48,463 nt of DNA from contig SVQL01000002.1 in assembly GCA_015065365.1 (NCBI GenBank), positions 1-48,463 of the forward strand, written 5' to 3'. Below, in pieces: positions 14,701 to 47,832 of the stretch. The notes below the pieces were generated by a model that did not search any database, was not told the DNA's origin, and was given only the letters and a program-made list of their open reading frames with translations. The stretch's first letter is position 1; each line of letters starts with the position of its first letter. Both the position numbers and the translations under genes were made by a program. Source of the DNA: Oscillospiraceae bacterium. Lineage in GTDB: Bacteria > Bacillota > Clostridia > Oscillospirales > CAG-272.

Positions 14701-16393
14701 CAATCCCGAGCTTGTTGCAAAGCTCAATAACGGACGCGCTACCGATGTTTGGAGACTCCGCGGAGGTGACGCGATAGTTCCCGCAGACGTAATTGCGGAC
14801 GACGTTTACCTCATAAACGTTCACATGTTTAACGGTGCTTCCGTAAGATTCTCCGACACCTCTGATATCCGCTTTACGGGTATTATAGGAAGCAACTATC
14901 TTGAGAGCAAGAAGGCAGAGGGCAAGACCGTTAAATTCGGTATTCTCATTTCGCTTGCCAGCTACGTTGAGCTGCTTGGTGACAAGGACTTTACGCCTGC
15001 TAACTTTGATGCTCTCGGCGAAGAAGTCATCAACGGCACGAGATACGTTATGATTGAGGCTACGAATTACGGCGGTGGCGAGGAGGACGGATATTACATC
15101 TTCTCGGGTGTTCTTTGGGGACTTAAGTCAAATACCAGAGAGTATGCGGCTCGCACATATATTCAAATAATTGACGACGCAACCGGTGAGATTGACAGGA
15201 CGTTGCTTTCCTACTACAACCCCACCGATAACAACAGAAGTATTGCTTACGTTGCGCAGGCGGCTTACGAGGATACCTGTAACTTCTCGAACGGCTACTA
15301 CAAGCACGAGCTTGCAGAGGGCCAGGGCGTATACAGCCCTTACACTCCCGAGCAACGCGAGAAGCTTCTTGACCTCTTCGGTAAAGAAGACGCAACCGAT
15401 ATCAGCTTCCTCAGCTACAACATAAGAAACGTTGAGGATACCTCGGGATGGATTGACAAGGCAACCTTTGAATACACCGACCGCAATATATACGTTCGCG
15501 ATTATCTTCTTGATTGCGGCGCGGACGTAATAGGACTTCAAGAAGCAGCAAAGCTGAAAGCGACTGCCAACACGCTTGACTGGTTTGATACTCTCGGTGA
15601 TGGAGATACCAACGTTGGACTCGTTGCGGCAGGCTACACCTGCGTTAAGGGCGAGGATATTCTTTCGCACGACGGCGACAAGGATATGTATAATCCGATA
15701 TACTTCAAGACGGACAAGTACGAGCTTGTAACAAGCGGAACGAAATGGTTGACGGCTACCCCTGACGTTTGCTCTGTTATAGACGGCTCGGATACGAGAA
15801 AGGCGCTCAATTATGTTGTTCTTAAGGATATAGCTACCGGTCAGCAGTTCGTATACGTAAACGTTCATCTCGTCGTAAGAAGAACGAATTACGTTCACGA
15901 TGGGGAAGGAGCCGATACGGAGCATTACTGTCAGGAGCTTGAGGTTATTTACCTTAGAGGTATACTCGACGCGCTCCAGAAGGATTACGCAGATCTTCCC
16001 ATGTTCATCGGCGGAGACTTTAACAACAGCTATTCGGGTATAAACAAGTGGTTTAGTAAGAGTGTGGTTGGTGAGAATCCTTGGGATATCAGCGAGGGTA
16101 CTCCTACGGAGACCGTTAAGATTTCCACCGCAAGAGATCAGGCGATAACCAAGAGCAGTTATCTGTACTCCTGCACCACCGAGGACTTTACACAGGTAAA
16201 TACCGATGCGGGAGCAAACGTATGGTCAAAATGGGGCGCTATCGACCTTTGGTGGACGTCCAACTTTACGAACGGCGTGGTTCATTGCTATCAGATACTT
16301 GACAACAAGACTACCACCTCTACGGGCGAAAAGTATCCCTCGGACCACTTGCCCGCAAAAATGTGTGTAACTATTTACAAGGATAATGCATAA
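11786..16393 (+). CDS. large secreted protein: three GLUG-like beta-helix modules + C-terminal EEP (endonuclease/exonuclease/phosphatase) domain
   Basis: 1535 aa. The signal peptide MNKKILSIVLVLSMLVGMLAVMPISVGA is near-identical to that of the upstream paralogue. There are three modules (FQGTFDGNGVTI, FAGNFNGNGKTI, FQGTFDGQGHTL, each with WxGGVVG / GGxVGG). The EEP domain spans 15398-16390 (SFLSYNIRN, VIGLQEA, IGGDFNN, PSDHLP). Confidence 0.85.
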   Translation: MNKKILSIVLVLSMLVGMLAVMPISVGAADADDGVLSGKGTENDPYIIAGLVDWATFVTDKKSAGDYYKVTATTLDFTGKTYNQVASFQGTFDGNGVTITGVNVNSSGEAGLFSCLGGVSTFKNFVVTNSTIKGNQWVGGVVCCCNGNATFENIYISDDVKIIAGVKSGNSYSGGLLGGGAGSPELITVRGCVFAGTVTAEGQYNGGFIGSRNGAKNIEIYNSIVLGKVPNTKANSCGFIGHSESTNVVMDNCIYAGGAAGVYYNNRPFFNKSASATVTNCYTVAANDNNTGAVYGDVKITDENNGVKLITFNQLIGYDADVDVDGFTTRAGDVMVPSGVAGFDLPQHYVAPQVEEWTGSGTESDPYTISTAAQWRYFVEQSATNDFSGKYIELARDITLNEGDAAEWAKGNFSGIAINSVCEASTGKSFAGNFNGNGKTISGVYINSSYKEGVGLFGEVGKATITNFRLVNSYIQGTEWMGGVVGETNGNGTVISNIYVGEDVYVKSTKSGGSGVGGVVGGIYGTTTNVTIDNCVFAGTVTGSSAAVAGILGNANKASNVTISDCLFLGTSSKNGITYIANLKDVESRAVIVTRCVSIGTATNAVEGSDKDGVTVSDCYWVGNGLSSKYDVFDDNASAEILTALGADWTTRTDDFITLDMFADVSNFVLEDEFPNTVEWETAQVITNAKEWNYFVFLAQVKRETFAGKTVYLNADIDFKNATIKTLAPDGVATFQGTFDGQGHTLKRFVIDDTVDATSVFGDIRGGAVIKNLVIDSATVYASQWAGVVVGEVSGEATIENVFVTEDVKLYSNRGTKQGEVGGIVGGLYGEGSVTVRGCVFAGEIYSNGKTVGGIVGRGNSLSVTIEDCLMLGSVECALEDSDANGILGWNKDKVNTDKDTGEITSVQEGTTVIRNTVYAGWGYSSYSFGSFGKNTTIENCYSTDAKYAYCIEVDQPEYGSVNHIEKTDIINNPELVAKLNNGRATDVWRLRGGDAIVPADVIADDVYLINVHMFNGASVRFSDTSDIRFTGIIGSNYLESKKAEGKTVKFGILISLASYVELLGDKDFTPANFDALGEEVINGTRYVMIEATNYGGGEEDGYYIFSGVLWGLKSNTREYAARTYIQIIDDATGEIDRTLLSYYNPTDNNRSIAYVAQAAYEDTCNFSNGYYKHELAEGQGVYSPYTPEQREKLLDLFGKEDATDISFLSYNIRNVEDTSGWIDKATFEYTDRNIYVRDYLLDCGADVIGLQEAAKLKATANTLDWFDTLGDGDTNVGLVAAGYTCVKGEDILSHDGDKDMYNPIYFKTDKYELVTSGTKWLTATPDVCSVIDGSDTRKALNYVVLKDIATGQQFVYVNVHLVVRRTNYVHDGEGADTEHYCQELEVIYLRGILDALQKDYADLPMFIGGDFNNSYSGINKWFSKSVVGENPWDISEGTPTETVKISTARDQAITKSSYLYSCTTEDFTQVNTDAGANVWSKWGAIDLWWTSNFTNGVVHCYQILDNKTTTSTGEKYPSDHLPAKMCVTIYKDNA

Positions 16394-16411
16394 TAGGGAG
16401 GTATATAAAAA

Positions 16412-16528
16412 ATGAAAAAAGTTTATGAATCTCCTGTTATGGAGAAAATGCTTTGCGCAAAGGAAGACGTGCTTTCCATGTCTTGGTTTGACAATGTTTT
16501 TGGAGAAGCAGATCCCTTTGAGGTTTAA
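16412..16528 (+). CDS. candidate small protein (38 aa), unknown function
   Basis: Not in ORF track (too short). GGGAGG SD lies 10 nt before ATG 16412, 18 nt after the stop of the 1535-aa gene. The product is MKKVYESPVMEKMLCAKEDVLSMSWFDNVFGEADPFEV. It is followed by the operon terminator. Confidence 0.4.
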   Translation: MKKVYESPVMEKMLCAKEDVLSMSWFDNVFGEADPFEV

Positions 16529-16607: not shown

Positions 16608-16784
16608 GGAGGACGCGAGGGCTGCGTTCCACCTTTTTCGAGAAAAAGGTGGAGCCAAAAAGCTTCCCACGAATTTATTATTAGACGGACACATCGAGGA
16701 AATATTATTTATTGGTTGAATATCGTTGGTGTGTTCTAATGTAGAAAGTCGTCGGACTCTGCGCACCGACGACTTTCCATTTTC
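16608..16784 (+). repeat. R-element copy 1 (~175-nt structured intergenic repeat: 5' hairpin, AT-rich spacer, terminator hairpin)
   Basis: Roughly 85-90% identical by eye to the copies at 32661-32845 and 32846-33022. It has a hairpin TCCACCTTTTT-CGAG-AAAAAGGTGGA and a 12-bp terminal stem GAAAGTCGTCGG/CCGACGACTTTC (16744-16777). Confidence 0.8.
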
Positions 16785-22186: not shown

Positions 22187-22221
22187 GAGATATTGACATA
22201 TATCTCAAATTGTGATATAAT
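22187..22221 (+). promoter_or_regulatory. consensus promoter with overlapping inverted repeat (candidate XRE operator)
   Basis: GAGATAT-TGACAT-ATATCTC (22187-22206) overlaps TTGACA (22193-22198), 17 nt spacer, TATAAT (22216-22221). Confidence 0.55.
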
Positions 22222-22252
22222 AACTATGCAAATAAAATTTTGGGAGGAAAAA

Positions 22253-22901: not shown

Positions 22902-22975
22902 AGGTTTCAATTTATGTGTTTATTATATTTTAGAAGAATATTTTTTAAAAAAATCAAAAAAGTTTCAAAAAACTA

Positions 22976-23004
22976 TTTACAAAATGCAAAAATCGTGATA
23001 TAAT
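22976..23004 (+). promoter_or_regulatory. rpsO promoter
   Basis: TTTACA (22976-22981), 17 nt spacer, TATAAT (22999-23004) with a TG extension. A ~100-nt leader contains the hairpin GTTATC...GATAAC. Confidence 0.65.
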
Positions 23005-23112
23005 AACTGTACATGTCGTTATCTCGGCTTTCGGATAACAGGCTATTTTAAGTAGCATTTCACCCGCCGATTTCTGAGTTAACGATAAATAAAAAAGAAA
23101 GGTGAAAAAATC

Positions 23113-28187: not shown

Positions 28188-28197
28188 CAGTAGTGGA

Positions 28198-28396
28198 CTA
28201 CTCATCCGTCATTGACTCGCAAGAGCGGCTCGTCAATGCCACCTTCCCTCACAAGGGAAGGCTAACTATGAGGGAACGTTCATCAAAAAATCAATATTTG
28301 AATTACAAGTATAAATAAAATTAGTTAGGATTTGCTTGTCTTACTAACAGCCTTCCCTTGTGAGGGAAGGGGGACCGCGTAGCGGTGGATGAGTAG
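28198..28396. repeat. A/B palindromic element pair, locus 1 (A1 28198-28263, 85-nt AT-rich spacer, B1 28349-28396)
   Basis: A1 is CTACTCATCC-[hairpin CATTGAC..GTCAATG]-CCACCTTCCCTCACAAGGGAAGGCT. B1 is AGCCTTCCCTTGTGAGGGAAGG-GGGACCGCGTAGCGGT-GGATGAGTAG. The arms are mutually inverted (22 + 10 bp), and the same units recur at 35695-35830. Confidence 0.85.
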
Positions 28397-29087: not shown

Positions 29088-32000
29088 ATGCTTGAATTAA
29101 AGGATATACGCAAGCAGTATGGCGTGGGGGACTCCGTCGTTCACGCACTTGCGGGAGTTAGCCTGAAGTTCAGAGAGAATGAATTTGTTTCAATTCTCGG
29201 AGCGTCGGGCTGCGGAAAGACTACCATGCTTAACATCATAGGCGGTCTTGACAGATATACGAGCGGCGATCTTGTAATTAACGGAAAATCTACAAAGGAC
29301 TTTAAGGATAGTGACTGGGATACGTACAGAAACCATTCTATCGGCTTCGTTTTCCAGAGCTACAACCTTATCCCTCACCAGACCGTTCTTGCAAACGTCG
29401 AGCTTGCCTTGACGCTTTCGGGCGTGTCAAAGGCGGAGCGCCGTCAAAGAGCGACTGAGGCACTCACAAAGGTAGGACTTGGCGACCAGCTCAACAAGAA
29501 GCCTAACCAGATGTCGGGCGGACAGATGCAGAGAGTTGCGATTGCACGCGCGCTCGTTAACAACCCCGATATTTTGCTTGCCGACGAGCCTACGGGAGCA
29601 CTCGATACCACCACCAGCGTTCAGATAATGGATCTTCTTAAGGAGGTCGCACGCGAAAAGCTGGTCATTATGGTAACGCATAACCCCGAGCTCGCAGAGG
29701 AATATTCCACGAGAATAGTAAGACTTAGCGACGGTCAGGTGGTGAGTGATACCGCGCCCTATAACGGCGAGGACGTAGTCGTAACTCCCATTGAAGAAGC
29801 TCCCGTAGAAGCTGTAAAGCCTACGAAGAAAAAGGAAAAGGCTAAAAAAGCGGATAGAAAAAAGAGTATGTCCTTCGGTACGGCGCTCTCCCTGTCCTTT
29901 AACAACCTTCTTACCAAAAAGGCGAGAACCTTTCTTACGTCATTTGCGGGAAGTATAGGAATTATCGGTATCGCGCTTATTCTTTCGCTTTCTAACGGTA
30001 TTCAGGCATATATAGATCAGGTTCAGGAGGATACTCTTTCGACATATCCTTTGACCTTGAACAAAACTACGCAAGATTACGCTTCTATGATGCAGGCAAT
30101 GAATAGCGTCAGCAACGACGGTGACAGAGAATTTGACGAAAACAAGATATATGTAGACGACTCGCTGGGAACTATGATGTCTGCGATGTCGGCAACCGTT
30201 GAAAACGACCTCGCTAAGTTCAAGTTGTATCTCGAAGAAAACGGACACGAGATTGAGGATTGCGTAAGCGATATACAATACACCTATGATTTTGACCTGC
30301 AGGTGTTTACGGCAGACGGAAAAACACAGGTAAGCCCTACGGAAATGTTCGACAAGATGGGTGACTCATTTGAGGGTATCAGCGAAATGGTAAATATGGT
30401 TGGCGGTTTTGGAGTAATGTCCGAAATGATAGACAACCAAGAGCTTCTCAATCAGCAGTATGAGCTTGTTGGTGACGGTCATTGGCCTACCGAGGCTAAC
30501 GAGGTTGTTCTCGTAATCAGCAAAAATAACCAGATAAGCAAAATGACGCTCTATATGCTCGGGATTCTTCCTCAGGAAGAGCTTGAGGACGTTATGACTC
30601 AGCTTATGACGAACGGAACCTACGAGTCTGCTCACGGTACGGAGTACAGCATTGATGATTTCCTCGGCATGGAGTTTTATATGCTCAACACCTCGGATTT
30701 CTTTGTTGAAAACGAAGGTGACGAGTATCTTGACGGTTATAATACGTGGAATGACCTTCGTGACGATATAGGTTGGGAGGATAGTCGTGCAGATTTCGTA
30801 ACCAAGAACGGTACGAAGCTTGTTATTTCGGGAATTGTTCGTCCTAAGGCGGACGCGACCTCGACCTCGATAATGGGCGCAATTGGCTATACTAAGGCTC
30901 TTACCGAGCACATTCTTGACCTCAACTCCAAGAGCAAGATTATAAATCAGCAAAAGGCAACTCCCGAGTATAACGTCCTGACGGGACTTAAGTTTGAGAG
31001 AACGCACTACACCCCGGAAACAATTCACCTGCTCGTAGATAAGATAGACGGTGCTACAATGGAGAGCTTCTATTCTTACATGACGGACATGATAAAGACA
31101 AATCCCGAATTTTCCTCGCAGCTTAACGTTACGGAGAGCAACTTCGCGCAAATGTTCATGCTTATGCCCGAGGAGCAGCAGGTTCAGTTAGTTTCTACTA
31201 TGCTTGAAGCGGCAAAGGCAAATCCTGCAAACACGGCTACGCCATACGGTGGATTGAATTTGCTTTGTGCTACTATGAAGCAAATGATGGGTGGAACAAT
31301 AGAGGTTACCACCGACAATATTACCCAGCTTCTTCCTATAATGTCCATGGAGCAGCGATACGTGCTTGTTAACGGAGCGGCTGCTTCTCAAATGGTGCCA
31401 ATTGACATTCCGGGACTTTCGTCGCTTGCCGGCAACCAGGTTATGAGCAGTATTTATTCCGCTATGACAGAAGCACTGTACGATATGACGGTGGATGAGA
31501 ATATATTCTTGGCTTTGCTTGGAACTATGAAGGAGGATAGCGAGGAGTTCAAAACTCTTGAAGAAGCACTTTACAATCTCGCTCCTCAAACGGACGCAAC
31601 CTATGACTCTACTCTTAAGACGCTTGGAGATGCAGAGAGTGCAGACCCCGCCTCAATAAACTTCTACGCAAAGGATTTTGAGTCCAAGGATAAGATTGAG
31701 CAGTTTATTGCGAAATATAACGAGCCGAGAAAGGATACTCTTGAGGAGATAAAGTATTCCGACGTTATCGGAGATATGATGGACGCAGTTGCGCTCATTA
31801 TAAACGTAATTTCTTACGTTCTTATAGCATTCGTTTCCATTTCTCTTATAGTTTCCTCTATCATGATAGGAATTATAACCTATATTTCTGTTCTTGAGAG
31901 AACTAAGGAAATCGGTATTCTTCGTTCGATTGGAGCGTCTAAGAAGGACGTTTCAAGAGTATTTACAGCAGAAACGCTTATCGTCGGTCTTACGGCAGGA

Positions 32001-32662: not shown

Positions 32663-32845
32663 GGATGCGGGGGACGCGAGGGATGCGTTCCACCTTTTTC
32701 GTGAAAAAGGTGGAACCAAAAAGCTTCACACAAATTTATTATTAGACGGACACATCGAAGAAATATTATTTATTGGTTGGATATTGTTGGTGTGTTCTGA
32801 TGAAGAAAGACGGCGGGCACTACGTACCGCCGTCTTTCGTTTTTT
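32661..32845 (+). repeat. R-element copy 2
   Basis: It starts at the stop codon of the upstream gene. Hairpin GTTCCACCTTTTT-CGTG-AAAAAGGTGGAAC is present, and terminator GAAAGACGGCGG/CCGCCGTCTTTC (32805-32838) is followed by GTTTTTT. Confidence 0.85.
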
Positions 32846-33022
32846 GGGGGATGCGGGGACGCGTTCCACCTTTTTCGAGAAAAAGGTGGAGCCAAAAAGC
32901 TTCCCACGAATTTATTATTAGACGAACACATTGAGGAAATATTATTCATTGGTTGGATATTGTTGGTGTGTTCTGATGAAGAAAGACGGCGGGCACTACG
33001 TACCGCCGTCTTTCGTTTTTTT
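32846..33022 (+). repeat. R-element copy 3 (tandem with copy 2, period 185 nt)
   Basis: More than 90% identical to copy 2 by eye. Terminator stem 32981-33014 is followed by GTTTTTTT. Confidence 0.85.
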
Positions 33023-35694: not shown

Positions 35695-35830
35695 AGCCTT
35701 CCCTTGTGAGGGAAGGGGGACCGCTTGCGGTGGATGAGTAGTAAAGAAAGAACTAAATAAAAGACTACTCATCCGTCATTGACTCGCACCATCGGCTCGT
35801 CAATGCCACCTTCCCTCACAAGGGAAGGCT
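35695..35830. repeat. A/B palindromic element pair, locus 2, in permuted order (B2 35695-35741, 23-nt spacer, A2 35765-35830)
   Basis: The units are the same as at 28198-28396, but B precedes A and the spacer is short. B2 and A2 together form a long imperfect hairpin. Confidence 0.85.
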
Positions 35831-35879
35831 CACGCTGACGGAGATTTCTGCGAGTTATTGATTAACCTACGGGGGAGAT

Positions 35880-45225: not shown

Positions 45226-45251
45226 TAAAAAAATAATGTTTTTAAGACTAC

Positions 45252-45280
45252 TTGACAAATGACAACAATTGTGATATAAT
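45252..45280 (+). promoter_or_regulatory. consensus sigma-A promoter driving the tRNA-like array
   Basis: TTGACA (45252-45257), 17 nt spacer, TATAAT (45275-45280) with TGTG extension. No ORF follows it. Confidence 0.75.
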
Positions 45281-45290
45281 AATCGGGCTG

Positions 45291-45520
45291 AAAAGTTAAT
45301 AGCTTTACGGCATGCTGCTTCCCCATGGCGTACATATCGAAGTGGGGACGTTGCCGAGCGCTGCCTGTGGCAGATAAAGCGAGGCATAAGGAGTGGCAGC
45401 GGTCGAAATTTGCGAGCGAGAGCGAGCAAAAATTTCGGGTACCGCAACAGGACATAACGAGGCGGTCTTGAAAATTTGCAGTCGCGAGTTTCTGCAAATG
45501 CTCAAAATCCCTTGACACGC
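45291..45520 (+). ncRNA. tRNA-Ser-derived unit 1 with 106-nt insertion in the D-loop (candidate ncRNA or decayed tRNA paralogue)
   Basis: TATCGAAGTGG (45335-45345) is followed by the insertion (45346-45451) and then ACATAACGAGGCGGTCTTGAAAA (45452-45474). Next come a variable-arm-like hairpin TTTGCAG/CTGCAAA and a decayed T-arm GCTCAAAATCCCTT. The anticodon stem no longer pairs. Confidence 0.6.
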
Positions 45521-45594
45521 TTGATGTTTTCGCCCTTCGGACGAAGCAGAAAATTATTCCTTCTAAAACTTTTTCTAAAAAATTCGCAAATCTA

Positions 45595-45754
45595 AAAACT
45601 TAATAGTCTTACACGGAGGGTTATCGAAGTGGGGACGTTGCCGAGCGCTGCCAGTGGCAGAAGAAGCGAGGCATAAGGAGTGGCAGCGGTCGAAATTTTG
45701 TGAGCGAGAGCGAGCAAAAAATTTCGGGCACCGCAACAGGACATAACGAGGCGG
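45595..45754 (+). ncRNA. tRNA-Ser-derived unit 2 with 108-nt insertion in the D-loop
   Basis: GGAGGGTTATCGAAGTGG (45615-45632; the tRNA has GGAGAGGTATCGAAGTGG) is followed by an insertion (45633-45740) ~94% identical to that of unit 1, then ACATAACGAGGCGG (45741-45754). Homology to the tRNA then stops. Confidence 0.6.
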
Positions 45755-45809
45755 AGCCGAGAAAATTTAATATTGAATGTTGAGCTTTTTTGAGCTTGAA
45801 CATATATAC

Positions 45810-45898
45810 GGAGAGGTATCGAAGTGGTCATAACGAGGCGGTCTTGAAAACCGTTTGGGGGCAACCCCACAAGGGTTCGAATCCCTTCCTCTCCGCCA
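45810..45898 (+). tRNA. tRNA-Ser (anticodon UGA), CCA encoded
   Basis: Hand-folded cloverleaf of 89 nt. Acceptor stem is GGAGAGG/CCTCTCC, D stem TCG/CGA, anticodon stem GCGGT/ACCGT with loop CTTGAAA. It has a long variable arm TTGGGGGCAACCCCAC, T arm AAGGG-TTCGAAT-CCCTT, discriminator G and CCA. Confidence 0.92.
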
Positions 45899-45902
45899 AC
45901 CA

Positions 45903-45926
45903 AGCCCCGATTTTCGGGGCTTTTTT
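45903..45926 (+). terminator. intrinsic terminator directly after tRNA-Ser
   Basis: GCCCCGA-TTT-TCGGGGC is followed by TTTTTT (45921-45926). Confidence 0.8.
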
Positions 45927-45952
45927 CGACTAAAGAAGGAGGAACTTTTAAT

Positions 45953-47122
45953 ATGTTGCCAAATGATTTCTTTAAAATAACTAAAAATATAGAGCAACAG
46001 AATAATCGCACCTTAAAAGAACTCTTCAAAGGATATATAAAAGGTTCATTTCTTATAGATATTAAGTACCGAGTTATAAAGGAGTTAGGTGAAAAATTGC
46101 TAACACTTTACGACTTTAACTTTCAGCGCCATATAAATGATTTAGTAACTCCAAAAGATACAAATTCAGAATATGATATTTGCAAACATATTGTTGGTGT
46201 ACACAGAGCAAACACTATTTTTCTTACAAGTGAAGAAAGAATTCAAAAGGAGAAGGATGAAAAATACAAATGTCAGTTAGTCAACCAAGTTGTTGAGCAA
46301 ATTTCTCTCAGACCTTATGGAAGTGCTTATTTCAGAGAAAAGAAAATAGTGTTAGGTGATCAATTTAACTACTACCCCGTTCCATATGAGTTGTTCGTGC
46401 TATGTATGCGTATGCATACCATAATTTATCAAAAAGGAGCAATAGGAGATTCGTCTTATTATTTTGCAAAAATCATAAACAAGGCAATGTCTGCATTAAC
46501 TCTTTTAGAAGATAATTTTTTGAGTACTGCATATTTACCATGTCGAACAGCACTTGAGGTATATCTTAAACTTCTTGTTTTGCGAAATTTCCCTGAATTG
46601 TTTGAAGAAGATAAAAAGTTTTCGTATTATGAAACAATTCAAACTTGCTGTGAGCAAGAATTTCCCGAAGAGTTTAATCAGTTGTTTGTGGGCAGAAAAA
46701 ACAAAAAAGAAAAAAATAAAATTGAATATTTGCACTATGGATTCGTTGATAAAATTCCCGATTATCATGGTATTGTAAAACAAAAGCCATATTCTTTTAA
46801 TGGCCTTTTGAAGTATCTAAAAGCAATTTCGTCAAGTGATATTTATGATGTGTTCGACACAATTGAAACACTGCATAAAATGTGTCATGGCTATGTACAT
46901 GGAGGGATTAGCGAATCAAAATATCCATTACTTCATTATTTTGAAATAACATTGATGTTAAACTTTGTTGTTCCTACGACTTATATGATGCTTTGCGAAG
47001 ATTATAATGAAGAAACAACTATATCTGGAATTGATGTTCTGGATAAAATTCAATCAGATTCTCAACTTTTGGTTAGCCAATACGATAAACGAAGCACGGA
47101 AAATTTCGAAATTAGAAATTGA
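45953..47122 (+). CDS. AT-rich hypothetical protein (389 aa), possibly AbiV/DUF5677-like; function unknown
   Basis: A strong SD AAGGAGG (45936-45942) lies 10 nt before the ATG. Base composition is much more AT-rich than the flanks. No TM helix or signal peptide, and no YxDD, Walker A or Rx4-6H motif was seen. LPCRTALEVYLKLLVLRNFPE and LHKMCHGYVHGG are the only conserved-looking patches. Confidence 0.7.
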   Translation: MLPNDFFKITKNIEQQNNRTLKELFKGYIKGSFLIDIKYRVIKELGEKLLTLYDFNFQRHINDLVTPKDTNSEYDICKHIVGVHRANTIFLTSEERIQKEKDEKYKCQLVNQVVEQISLRPYGSAYFREKKIVLGDQFNYYPVPYELFVLCMRMHTIIYQKGAIGDSSYYFAKIINKAMSALTLLEDNFLSTAYLPCRTALEVYLKLLVLRNFPELFEEDKKFSYYETIQTCCEQEFPEEFNQLFVGRKNKKEKNKIEYLHYGFVDKIPDYHGIVKQKPYSFNGLLKYLKAISSSDIYDVFDTIETLHKMCHGYVHGGISESKYPLLHYFEITLMLNFVVPTTYMMLCEDYNEETTISGIDVLDKIQSDSQLLVSQYDKRSTENFEIRN

Positions 47123-47319
47123 TAGGTTCAATAGTTTTGAATTTCAAAATAATATTTTCATGCCACTCCGATTTCTGCGTATTCTTAAACGCCTTATACT
47201 CCTTTGCGGTGCAAGCGTTATCGCTTGGTGCTTCGCACCATGCTCGCATTCTGCGAGCCACCGCGGAGCAATCTGCGCTCACTCGCTCACAAGCAAGCTT
47301 GCAGCCTCGTTTCGCTTGA

Positions 47320-47832
47320 TTATCTGGTGGCGAGGTAGTTAATGATGCTCTGCTTTGAGATGTAGTACTTGCCCATTATGGCGACTGCGTATATGTATTT
47401 TCTCTGCACGTACCGAAGGATTGTTCTTCGGTGATAGCCTGTCAGCTCGGCGACCTCGTCCACGGTGAGCGTATCGGGTACGGCAGAAAGAAGATTCTCG
47501 AGCATTTCTTTGAACCGCGCTCTCTCCTTGCCACGGAGCTTATAATTCGTATCATCAAAATAACCCCCACAGTCCGAGCCCTGCGACTCGGTTCTGCGAG
47601 GGTTATTTGTCTTTTTGGCGTTGAAAATACCGACGGGGATTTCTTTCCGCTTCTCTCGTTCGCTCTTTGTCATGTAGGCGAGAACATCCTCCTTTCTGAC
47701 AGAATATTTGTGCGTAGGCGTGTTACGGATTTCGCACGGAATGATTCCGTTTTGCAGCATCCACGCCGCCTTGCGCTTGCTGATGTGGAGCATCTTGTAA
47801 AGCTGCTCCAAGGAGATGATCTCGCCTTTCAT
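47320..47832 (-). CDS. double helix-turn-helix (excisionase/MerR-like) DNA-binding protein of mobile-element type
   Basis: 170 aa. LYKMLHISKRKAAWMLQNGIIPC and LTVDEVAELTGYHRRTILRYVQRKYIYAVAIMGKYYISKQSIINYL are two HTH_17-like modules joined by a basic linker. Confidence 0.65.
   Translation of the reverse strand: MKGEIISLEQLYKMLHISKRKAAWMLQNGIIPCEIRNTPTHKYSVRKEDVLAYMTKSEREKRKEIPVGIFNAKKTNNPRRTESQGSDCGGYFDDTNYKLRGKERARFKEMLENLLSAVPDTLTVDEVAELTGYHRRTILRYVQRKYIYAVAIMGKYYISKQSIINYLATR

Follow-up and report, generated by a model that had tools for sequence, protein, structure and literature searches.

A two-hairpin module, most likely a new repeat family, in pseudo-tRNA-Ser leaders of gut and rumen Clostridia

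Introduction

What kind of sequence sits twice, at the same D-loop position, inside broken copies of a tRNA-Ser gene whose intact version follows directly downstream? The question is raised by positions 45252-45926 of a 48,463-nucleotide (nt) stretch of contig SVQL01000002.1 (assembly GCA_015065365.1) from an Oscillospiraceae bacterium; this whole stretch is called the window. A preliminary description had favoured a new tRNA-like non-coding RNA (ncRNA) with a private insertion, and named as its alternative a tRNA paralogue hit by an element of the kind of miniature inverted-repeat transposable elements (MITEs). The comparisons described here point to a new repeat family as the most likely identity of the insert, in preference to a novel type of tRNA-like RNA. 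Judged by its homologues, the module most likely forms a previously uncatalogued, discrete family of ~105-120 nt in Oscillospiraceae-like gut and rumen Clostridia. With moderate confidence it is read as a mobile repeat that is non-autonomous and depends on hairpins, carried along in tRNA-Ser 5' fragments that are themselves decaying or recombining; it would be co-transcribed with the tRNA and lost on RNase P cleavage.

Two interrupted tRNA-Ser fragments in one leader

All features of the array lie on the + strand. A sigma-70 type promoter with a TG extension (TTGACA-17-TATAAT, positions 45252-45280) was confirmed with 12/12 matches in the promoter scan, which lists no second strong promoter-like site on the + strand in the interval from the peptidase gene to the tRNA. 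This promoter would drive the leader and the tRNA, and homologous promoters occur at L020, L021 and L119. The list of open reading frames (ORFs) holds no credible ORF between promoter and tRNA.

The two tRNA-Ser-derived units and their inserts are as first described. Both share TATCGAAGTGG and ACATAACGAGGCGG, split by the insert after the D-loop GG. The 5' part of unit 1 (45288-45345) has a degenerate acceptor-like segment followed by the D-arm 5' piece TATCGAAGTGG at 45335-45345. Module copy 1 (45346-45451, 106 nt) follows the D-loop GG, folds into two hairpins and scores 116.3 bits with model R1 and 110.7 bits with model R2. The 3' part of unit 1 (45452-45591) contains tRNA nt 20-38 (ACATAACGAGGCGGTCTTGAAAA), a hairpin ATTTGCAG...CTGCAAAT, a decayed T-arm-like stretch and a hairpin TTCGCCC..GACGAA, and closes with an A/T-rich spacer bearing TCTAAAA repeats. 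In unit 2, a repeat search delimits a leader and a decoy of tRNA nt 1-19 (45592-45632, with CGGAGGGTTATCGAAGTGG at 45614-45632), followed by module copy 2 (45633-45740, 108 nt, R1 127.3 bits), to which structure and covariation also apply. In the tail of unit 2 (45741-45809), tRNA nt 20-30 (ACATAACGAGGCGG) are accompanied by a short tandem-G·A hairpin (CGAGG-CGGAG-CCGAG) and by the spacer that leads into the real tRNA. A counterpart of this hairpin, ACGGGG-loop-CCCCGT, is found again in most related loci.

Identity between the two inserts is 93.5%. Within the 48 kb, long sub-strings of the insert are present twice, where none is expected by chance, and string search and models R1 and R2 agree that the window holds two copies, both in the tRNA leader. 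The intact tRNA-Ser(UGA) at 45810-45898 has an encoded CCA and no insertion (ARAGORN; Rfam tRNA, 57.4 bits). It is the sole call of ARAGORN and Rfam. Unit 2 ends after GCGG and the anticodon stem of unit 1 is broken, and the view that neither unit is a functional tRNA holds.

A discrete module with a covarying fold

Metagenome loci were gathered with one internal 19-mer of the insert. This returned 65 loci (L100-L164) with ~60 module homologues, and ~50 of the 65 hold full-length homologues with the same ends and 75-92% identity over nt 1-108. Both ends carry short conserved sequences (GGAC..., ...AACAGG). The consensus fold was derived from 54 aligned copies (A2), copy 1 of the window among them. 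This fold consists of two imperfect hairpins (columns 7-41 and 54-108), each bearing a GCGAGC·GCGAGC box with tandem G·A pairs. P1 pairs UUUGC-GA-GC with GC-GA-GCAAA around an internal tandem G·A (45639-45646 with 45666-45673 in copy 2) and is capped by the P2 hairpin CCGCC-NNN-GGCGG (45648-45652 with 45656-45660); the linker AAGGAGUGGCA is conserved. P3, GCGGU/ACCGC (45686-45690 with 45730-45734), encloses the long hairpin P4 (CGAAAUCUU/AAGAUUUCG, 45691-45699 with 45718-45726, plus an inner GUGAGC/GCGAGC stem in copy 2), which has the second GCGAGC/GCGAGC box.

Covariation among the aligned homologues is strong. In A2, 99% of cells are paired and 9 of the 25 pairs show compensatory changes across 71 cells; 0/500 shuffles match this, and slid controls pair at 34-57%. 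When divergent Vescimonas copies are added, 17/25 pairs are compensatory, P3 included, and this result leans towards structure since the alignment was fitted to the model. Over both alignments the slid controls pair at 31-57%. The CGAAATTT/AAATTTCG stem of the preliminary description is correct by both consensus fold and covariation. Its other two stems, a GTTGC/GCAAC closing stem and a long-range CGCTGCC/GGCAGCG stem, find no support in the 54 homologues: 78.5% of their cells pair, equal to shuffles, and columns 8:108, 9:107 and 17:53 are broken in 42-47 of the 54 sequences. The true partners are CTGCC with the adjacent GGCAG, GUUGCC with GGCAU, and GCGGU with ACCGC. The GTTGC/GCAAC ends had also been called weakly inverted; they are not conserved, and at two of five positions they pair in 7-9 of 54 copies.

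Known RNA families do not match the units. At the gathering threshold of Rfam 15 the real tRNA alone scores, and at E<=10 nothing credible appears on the units, where the top-scoring model, a Bacillus-plasmid RNA, reaches 13.9 bits and would need 31. Neither group I nor group II introns match, in agreement with the earlier judgement that the insert is not a group I intron. Single-sequence folding of units and inserts (z = -1.4 to -2.0) gives mutually inconsistent structures and is uninformative without homologues. The consensus fold of the leader with the module masked is weak (-10.8 kcal/mol).

Sister species keep the fragments and lack the module

The window derives from the genome of a ruminant-gut member of the Clostridia/Eubacteriales, and several metagenome contigs carry identical genes. 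Two sister-species metagenome-assembled genomes, L020 and L021, whose U32 peptidases are 93% and 92% identical to that of the window in amino acids (aa), have the same promoter, and upstream of tRNA-Ser they too carry an array of its 5' fragments. These are uninterrupted, with AAGTGG or AAGCGG joined directly to TCATAACG, and the module is absent at the exact site. Contig L013, with the identical tRNA and 389-aa ORF, has a unit-1 homologue without the module. The preliminary description had asked whether relatives lack the units; L020 and L021 keep the units, and what both lack is the module. Since sister species hold the fragments without the module, the pseudo-tRNA fragments predate it, and on this comparison the module is a lineage-specific addition to a pseudo-tRNA leader.

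The 3' part of unit 1 is 98% (L020) and 92% (L021) identical to the window, compared with 86-87% for the adjoining 4.3 kb of genes and 63-69% for their third codon positions. A leader more conserved than its genes is either constrained or recently exchanged. Decoys without the module end in the anticodon loop (...GGTCTTGAAA), and the decoy acceptor alleles are GGAGGGT, GGAGAGT and GGAGGGA, as against GGAGAGG in the resident tRNA. The anticodon-loop ends, the foreign acceptor alleles, the 3'-end repeats and the differing left flanks (see below) suggest that the 5' fragments may have originated by recombination at the tRNA 5' half, although no integrase was seen in the window or beside the loci examined.

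Other decoy forms occur in the same relatives. A third kind, at about 3408-3319 (- strand) of L020 and about 225-312 of L013, is interrupted between tRNA nt 10 and 11 by another structured insert, ~60 nt long (ATCTCGCC..GGCGAAGAT, then ACCCACACCC...GGGTGGGGT), and the L013 decoy of this kind carries the module too. L020 also has a perfect 20-nt inverted duplication of the tRNA-Ser 5' end at 3811-3769 (- strand), CCACTTCGATAACCCTCCGT-TGC-ACGGAGGGTTATCGAAGTGG.

Dispersal on a Vescimonas replicon

A blastn search of plasmid records with the module consensus matched one record, Vescimonas fastidiosa pMM35_01, in 20 places. This is an 860-kb replicon with ribosomal-protein operons. In 140 kb of it there are 9 covariance-model copies, all intergenic, all on the + strand (9/9) and all after GG. 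Most of these 9 lie inside hairpins that resemble repetitive extragenic palindromic (REP) elements and end in CTAC, for example GGGACGATG-TGG, the module, then AT-CATCGTCCC-CTACGG, and empty hairpins of the same kind are close by. Another copy is flanked by the HPr terminator and the rimP promoter, a location in which it need not be transcribed.

The Vescimonas sequence L165 has dense REP-like hairpins of the form GGGCCGATG-TAGG-CATCGGCCC-CTAC, for example around 16200-16500 and 29350-29470. In 40 kb of L165, CCCCTACG occurs 21 times on one strand. These hairpins often precede GGAGGGTTAC, identical to the 10 nt with which tRNA-Ser(UGA) starts in the metagenome loci.

Hosts, flanks and tandem copies

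In ~38 of ~52 metagenome loci the module lies in a tRNA-Ser leader decoy, directly behind the promoter and on the tRNA's strand. The order of these ~38 loci recurs: promoter, ~10-20 nt, a copy of nt 1-19 of the downstream tRNA, one to three modules, tRNA nt 20-30, the hairpin ACGGGG-loop-CCCCGU, a spacer of 45-110 nt, and an intact tRNA-Ser(UGA) or tRNA-Ser(CGA). L113 has the same order with tRNA-Pro(UGG). Other hosts are a class-II tRNA-like decoy (L162), stems of the form GGGCGG...CCGCCCCTAC (L121, L147), and 3' trailer units of tRNA-Ser(GCU), tRNA-Thr and tRNA-Leu (L143, L146, L164, L124). In none of the tRNA-leader loci examined does the intact tRNA gene carry the module. An insertion scattered through the genome and one confined to tRNA-Ser had been set out as alternatives. 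The module is dispersed on the Vescimonas replicon, as the former would have it, and the metagenome loci lie mostly in tRNA-Ser leader decoys.

The flanks are more regular than the hosts. NGG stands at the end of the 5' flank in 54/55 copies, and the first base 3' of the module is A in 39, G in 14, C in two and T in none (n = 55). Uninterrupted tRNA-Ser and tRNA-Pro have T at this base, and L003 alone keeps GT. With GG at both junctions, the module boundaries are ambiguous. A test for stems between the flanks was uninformative (mean 5.7 vs 5.2 bp), since chance alone lets GC-rich flanks pair. Copies arranged exactly head to tail, at a period of 109 nt and with no linker, occur in L100, L136 (three copies), L141, L152 and L163. 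A neighbouring protein shared between loci, which had seemed possible, is not found: ORF clustering around ~50 loci gives no common protein partner, and the top clusters are spurious ORFs that overlap the module.

Two further arrangements stand beside these. In L003 (1-453, - strand) the 5' part of unit 1 and a module are followed by a tail of the tRNA-Ser(CGA)-leader type and by another decoy with a module, a layout that reflects either inter-locus recombination through the module or an assembly chimera. Downstream of tRNA-Ser(GCU), tRNA-Thr(CGU) and tRNA-Leu(GAG) there are arrays of ~200-nt units, with and without the module (L143 about 1578-1950, L146 888-1210, L164 17-330, L124 12590-13150). 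Every unit terminates in a repeat of the tRNA's 3' end, comprising the 3' strands of T-stem and acceptor and the CCA, together with the terminator; a helix between the unit's 5' end and this repeated tRNA end closes it.

Likeness to known elements

PATEs (palindrome-associated transposable elements) are non-autonomous IS200/IS605 derivatives that move by single-strand 'peel-and-paste' transposition. The module resembles them in its imperfect subterminal hairpins at both ends (99% paired, 9 to 17/25 pairs compensatory) and in having no terminal inverted repeats, as the GTTGC/GCAAC ends are unsupported. It also sits next to a short fixed motif (NGG, 54/55), without obvious target duplication and in one-strand orientation (9/9 in Vescimonas), and has empty sites in relatives (L020, L021, L013). 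Its copies are dispersed in Vescimonas (20 blastn places, 9 model copies in 140 kb), with two in the window and none in 616 kb of relatives. Unlike the case of PATEs, no Y1 transposase was found in the loci searched, the motif is just NGG, hairpin loops are the preferred hosts, the module is followed by a changed base (T20 is replaced, with GG junctions that are ambiguous), and copy number in the window's lineage is low. As the searches made found no cognate enzyme, membership in this family is unproven.

REP elements and bacterial interspersed mosaic elements (BIMEs) are GTAG-tagged palindromes with REP-associated tyrosine transposases (RAYTs), and Firmicutes are not noted as REP/RAYT hosts in the survey (PMC3733652, PMC2817692). 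The module is likewise small, GC-rich, structured and extragenic and clusters in mosaics, and its Vescimonas host hairpins end in CTAC, which is GTAG on the other strand. It differs in its length of 105-120 nt, with two different hairpins and tandem G·A boxes, compared with the 20-40-nt palindrome of REP. It also has no GTAG of its own; only host hairpins (Vescimonas, L121, L147) end in CTAC.

With transcribed MITEs (ERIC, Correia/NEMIS, RUP, BOX, Bcr1) the module shares a size of ~100-150 nt, an intergenic and often transcribed position, a stable RNA fold and presence/absence polymorphism between strains. Terminal inverted repeats and a target duplication of TA or a similar sequence mark those elements, whereas the module has no terminal inverted repeats and no target duplication beyond the ambiguous GG. 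The earlier alternative of a tRNA paralogue hit by a MITE-like element is essentially right, except that the element has no such repeats and belongs to no known insertion sequence (IS) or MITE family.

The units themselves resemble tRNA pseudogenes and att fragments, being truncated copies of the adjacent tRNA, several of which end in the anticodon loop, in arrays that vary between strains. They are 5' fragments upstream of the tRNA, whereas 3' fragments downstream are usual, and they lie 150-290 nt apart and are better conserved than the flanking genes. tRNA introns, such as bacterial group I introns in anticodon loops and archaeal introns with a bulge-helix-bulge, also split a tRNA with a structured insert at a fixed position. 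Unlike these, the hosts here are incomplete pseudo-tRNAs, there is no intron core or bulge-helix-bulge motif, and the same insert occurs outside tRNA. As for a riboswitch or other cis-acting leader, the position is conserved in ~38 loci (tRNA-Ser or tRNA-Pro, same strand, promoter-driven), and no expression platform is seen: there is no terminator between decoy and tRNA, and sister leaders lack the module.

Several further candidates were set aside. The core motifs of an integron attC site do not fit, a kink-turn would need a 3-nt bulge that is absent, and a T-loop mimic, a transfer-messenger RNA (tmRNA)-like RNA and a retron were considered and dropped. Viral contigs gave no match to the exact pattern and two chance matches, in high-GC coding DNA, to an end-anchored gapped pattern; phage records gave no blastn match. 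The module is not described in the repeat literature searched.

A mobile repeat and what weighs against it

The idea of a new tRNA-like ncRNA with a private insertion is not supported as stated, because the module is self-contained in unrelated hosts, including hairpin loops and intergenic spacers, and sister pseudo-tRNA units lack it. The case for a mobile repeat rests on presence and absence at the exact site, many unrelated hosts, a fixed flank motif, linker-free tandems, expansion in one genome with relic copies elsewhere, and structure kept without inverted termini. Insertion would be site-specific, 3' of NGG and usually in a hairpin loop. The landing sites would be a tRNA D-loop after G18G19, the loop of a GTAG-tagged REP-like palindrome, and the 3' end of another copy. 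Since an intact tRNA could not tolerate insertion, pseudo-tRNA fragments, which would offer the same D-arm hairpin as the essential gene, may serve as safe landing sites. The units and the tRNA would form one precursor transcript from a single promoter, and an RNase P cut at tRNA G1 would discard the ~520-nt leader with its modules. The least certain step is transposition itself, which would probably proceed through folded single-stranded DNA and a trans-acting HUH/Y1 enzyme of the IS200/IS605 or RAYT type.

A number of observations weigh against this reading. No transposase is annotated in 140 kb of Vescimonas, Pfam finds none in ten window ORFs (seven of 107-170 aa and three larger), and tblastn of 1.13 Mb of loci with an approximate IS200 TnpA query gave nothing significant. 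Models R1 and R2 find no module copies in 616 kb from 80 relatives of the window's organism, and copy number in the window's lineage is low, at two copies per 48 kb. The tRNA T20 is replaced by A, G or C at the filled site, so the insertion is not clean. The bias to tRNA leaders exceeds expectation for a promiscuous element and could reflect selection for an RNA role, and the conservation of the leader may reflect constraint and not decay. The conserved unpaired segment AAGGAGUGGCA and a G/AUGAA internal loop resemble those of functional RNAs; the search 19-mer is invariant by construction, so part of this conservation is ascertainment. Some contig-level variants are possibly assembly chimeras through the repeat. 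The tRNA-leader concentration, D-stem covariation, recurrent post-module hairpin, leader conservation and T20 replacement leave room for an RNA-level role of the module, which is nevertheless judged doubtful.

Alternative explanations

The same leader could be a functional RNA, in which the mimic of the tRNA 5' part is a scaffold that presents the module as a protein- or ligand-binding domain. It might tune folding or RNase P processing of the tRNA that follows, through a competition of the D-stem with the ACGGGG/CCCCGU hairpin for pairing, or release a stable small RNA (sRNA). The one architecture of ~38 loci and four tRNA types is what such a function would leave behind, as are a D-stem that covaries across loci (TCG/CGA, CCG/CGG, CCCG/CGGG), a post-module hairpin that keeps its stem while its loop varies, very strong module covariation with conserved junction nucleotides, and a leader that outconserves coding DNA between sister species. 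However, the leader persists without the module in the sister species and in a near-identical strain, the module also occurs in non-tRNA hairpins and in a terminator-promoter spacer, and tandem copies are joined without a linker. With a weak consensus fold of the leader, no terminator or other expression platform between decoy and tRNA, and leader conservation that could be gene flow at a tRNA hot spot, a functional leader is unlikely. A related reading, in which decoy and module make up an RNA device and a mimic of the tRNA's first 20-30 nt displays the two-hairpin domain in the tRNA's own leader, is likewise unlikely. Such a device would gate folding or RNase P maturation, act as a tRNA-linked sRNA, or be the guide scaffold of a mobile-element nuclease, and module mobility would then be the way in which it spreads between tRNA genes.

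The units may instead be integration scars, that is, attL-type remnants of small elements that recombine in the tRNA-Ser 5' half, with the module as their end structure or cargo and no transposon in its own right. The anticodon loop, where decoys without the module end, is reportedly the classical crossover site of tRNA-targeting integrases. Decoy acceptor alleles that differ from the resident tRNA, 3'-side arrays that repeat the tRNA 3' end and terminator, the identical segment of tRNA and 389-aa ORF joined to at least three different left flanks, and the low-GC island with an HTH_17 protein beside the tRNA fit the same picture. But there is no integrase in the window or beside the loci examined, the 'elements' between repeats would be just 150-290 nt long, module-bearing decoys end at variable points, and the modules in REP-like hairpins and exact tandems are left unexplained, so that scars are a distinctly improbable account. 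By analogy with TnpB and its omega-RNA, the module could be a guide-RNA scaffold, with the flanking tRNA (ACATAACG...) as guide and NGG as target-adjacent motif; the T-to-R change at the first flank base would then shield the real tRNA gene from self-cleavage. A structured scaffold of ~109 nt directly adjoined by host sequence, NGG 5' of 54/55 copies, the lack of T at the first 3' position in 55/55 and the IS200/IS605-like end architecture would suit this. No TnpB, IscB or TnpA gene lies near any copy examined, however, nor is there an Rfam match to omega-RNA (IS605-orfB), and the idea, which rests on analogy only, is very unlikely. An intron spliced from a second tRNA-Ser, or a split tRNA whose halves are joined, would explain the one defined D-loop position and is scarcely credible: the units lack the T-arm and the acceptor 3' strand, neither is called by ARAGORN or Rfam, no group I or II match exists, non-tRNA hairpins carry the module and the intact tRNA never does. 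The missing 3' exons effectively refute it.

Neighbouring features of the window

Behind the tRNA, an intrinsic-terminator-like hairpin (GCCCCG-ATTTT-CGGGGC, then TTTTTT; about 45901-45927, + strand) can be read from the sequence. The terminator scan did not list it, and Rfam sRNA models align only to this hairpin. The next gene, a 389-aa ORF with a DUF5677 domain (45953-47122, + strand, GC 0.31; Pfam), is probably island cargo outside the RNA feature. Together with a 170-aa double HTH_17 protein it adjoins the tRNA in an island-like segment (45953-47832). In L014, L016 and L017, the tRNA and this ORF recur as identical copies whose left flanks are of at least three kinds, and each flank brings a promoter of its own.

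Elsewhere in the window, promoters at 22191-22230, 22974-23013 and 45250-45289 have a common extended consensus, TTGACA...(A/T)TTGTGATATAATAA, a hint that one type of strong promoter recurs in this genome. An intergenic repeat of 166-176 nt occurs at 16619-16784 and as a tandem pair at 32680-32845 and 32856-33021, and has two hairpins, GTTCCACCTTTTTCGAGAAAAAGGTGGAAC and the terminator-like GAAAGACGGCGG...CCGCCGTCTTTCGTTTTTT. A MITE-like element of ~200 nt, with inverted ends ACTACTCATCC ... GGATGAGTAGT and a hairpin CCTTCCCTCACAAGGGAAGG, is present in two copies in opposite arrangement (28196-28396, 35695-35842).

Implications

If decoy and module did form an RNA device, the minority reading, the locus would represent a new way to regulate or exploit tRNA genes through a mimic of the tRNA 5' half, and would be of interest to RNA biologists. 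If the module is a mobile repeat, the reading preferred here, it would represent a new structured-repeat family of uncultured Clostridia from gut and rumen, one that neither Rfam nor the repeat literature searched contains. Its habit of landing in hairpin loops, among them the D-loop of fragmented tRNA genes, and of stacking head to tail would be unusual. Such a module breaks short-read assemblies at tRNA loci and confuses tRNA and ncRNA annotation, and it would mark the tRNA-Ser leaders of these bacteria as recombination hot spots.

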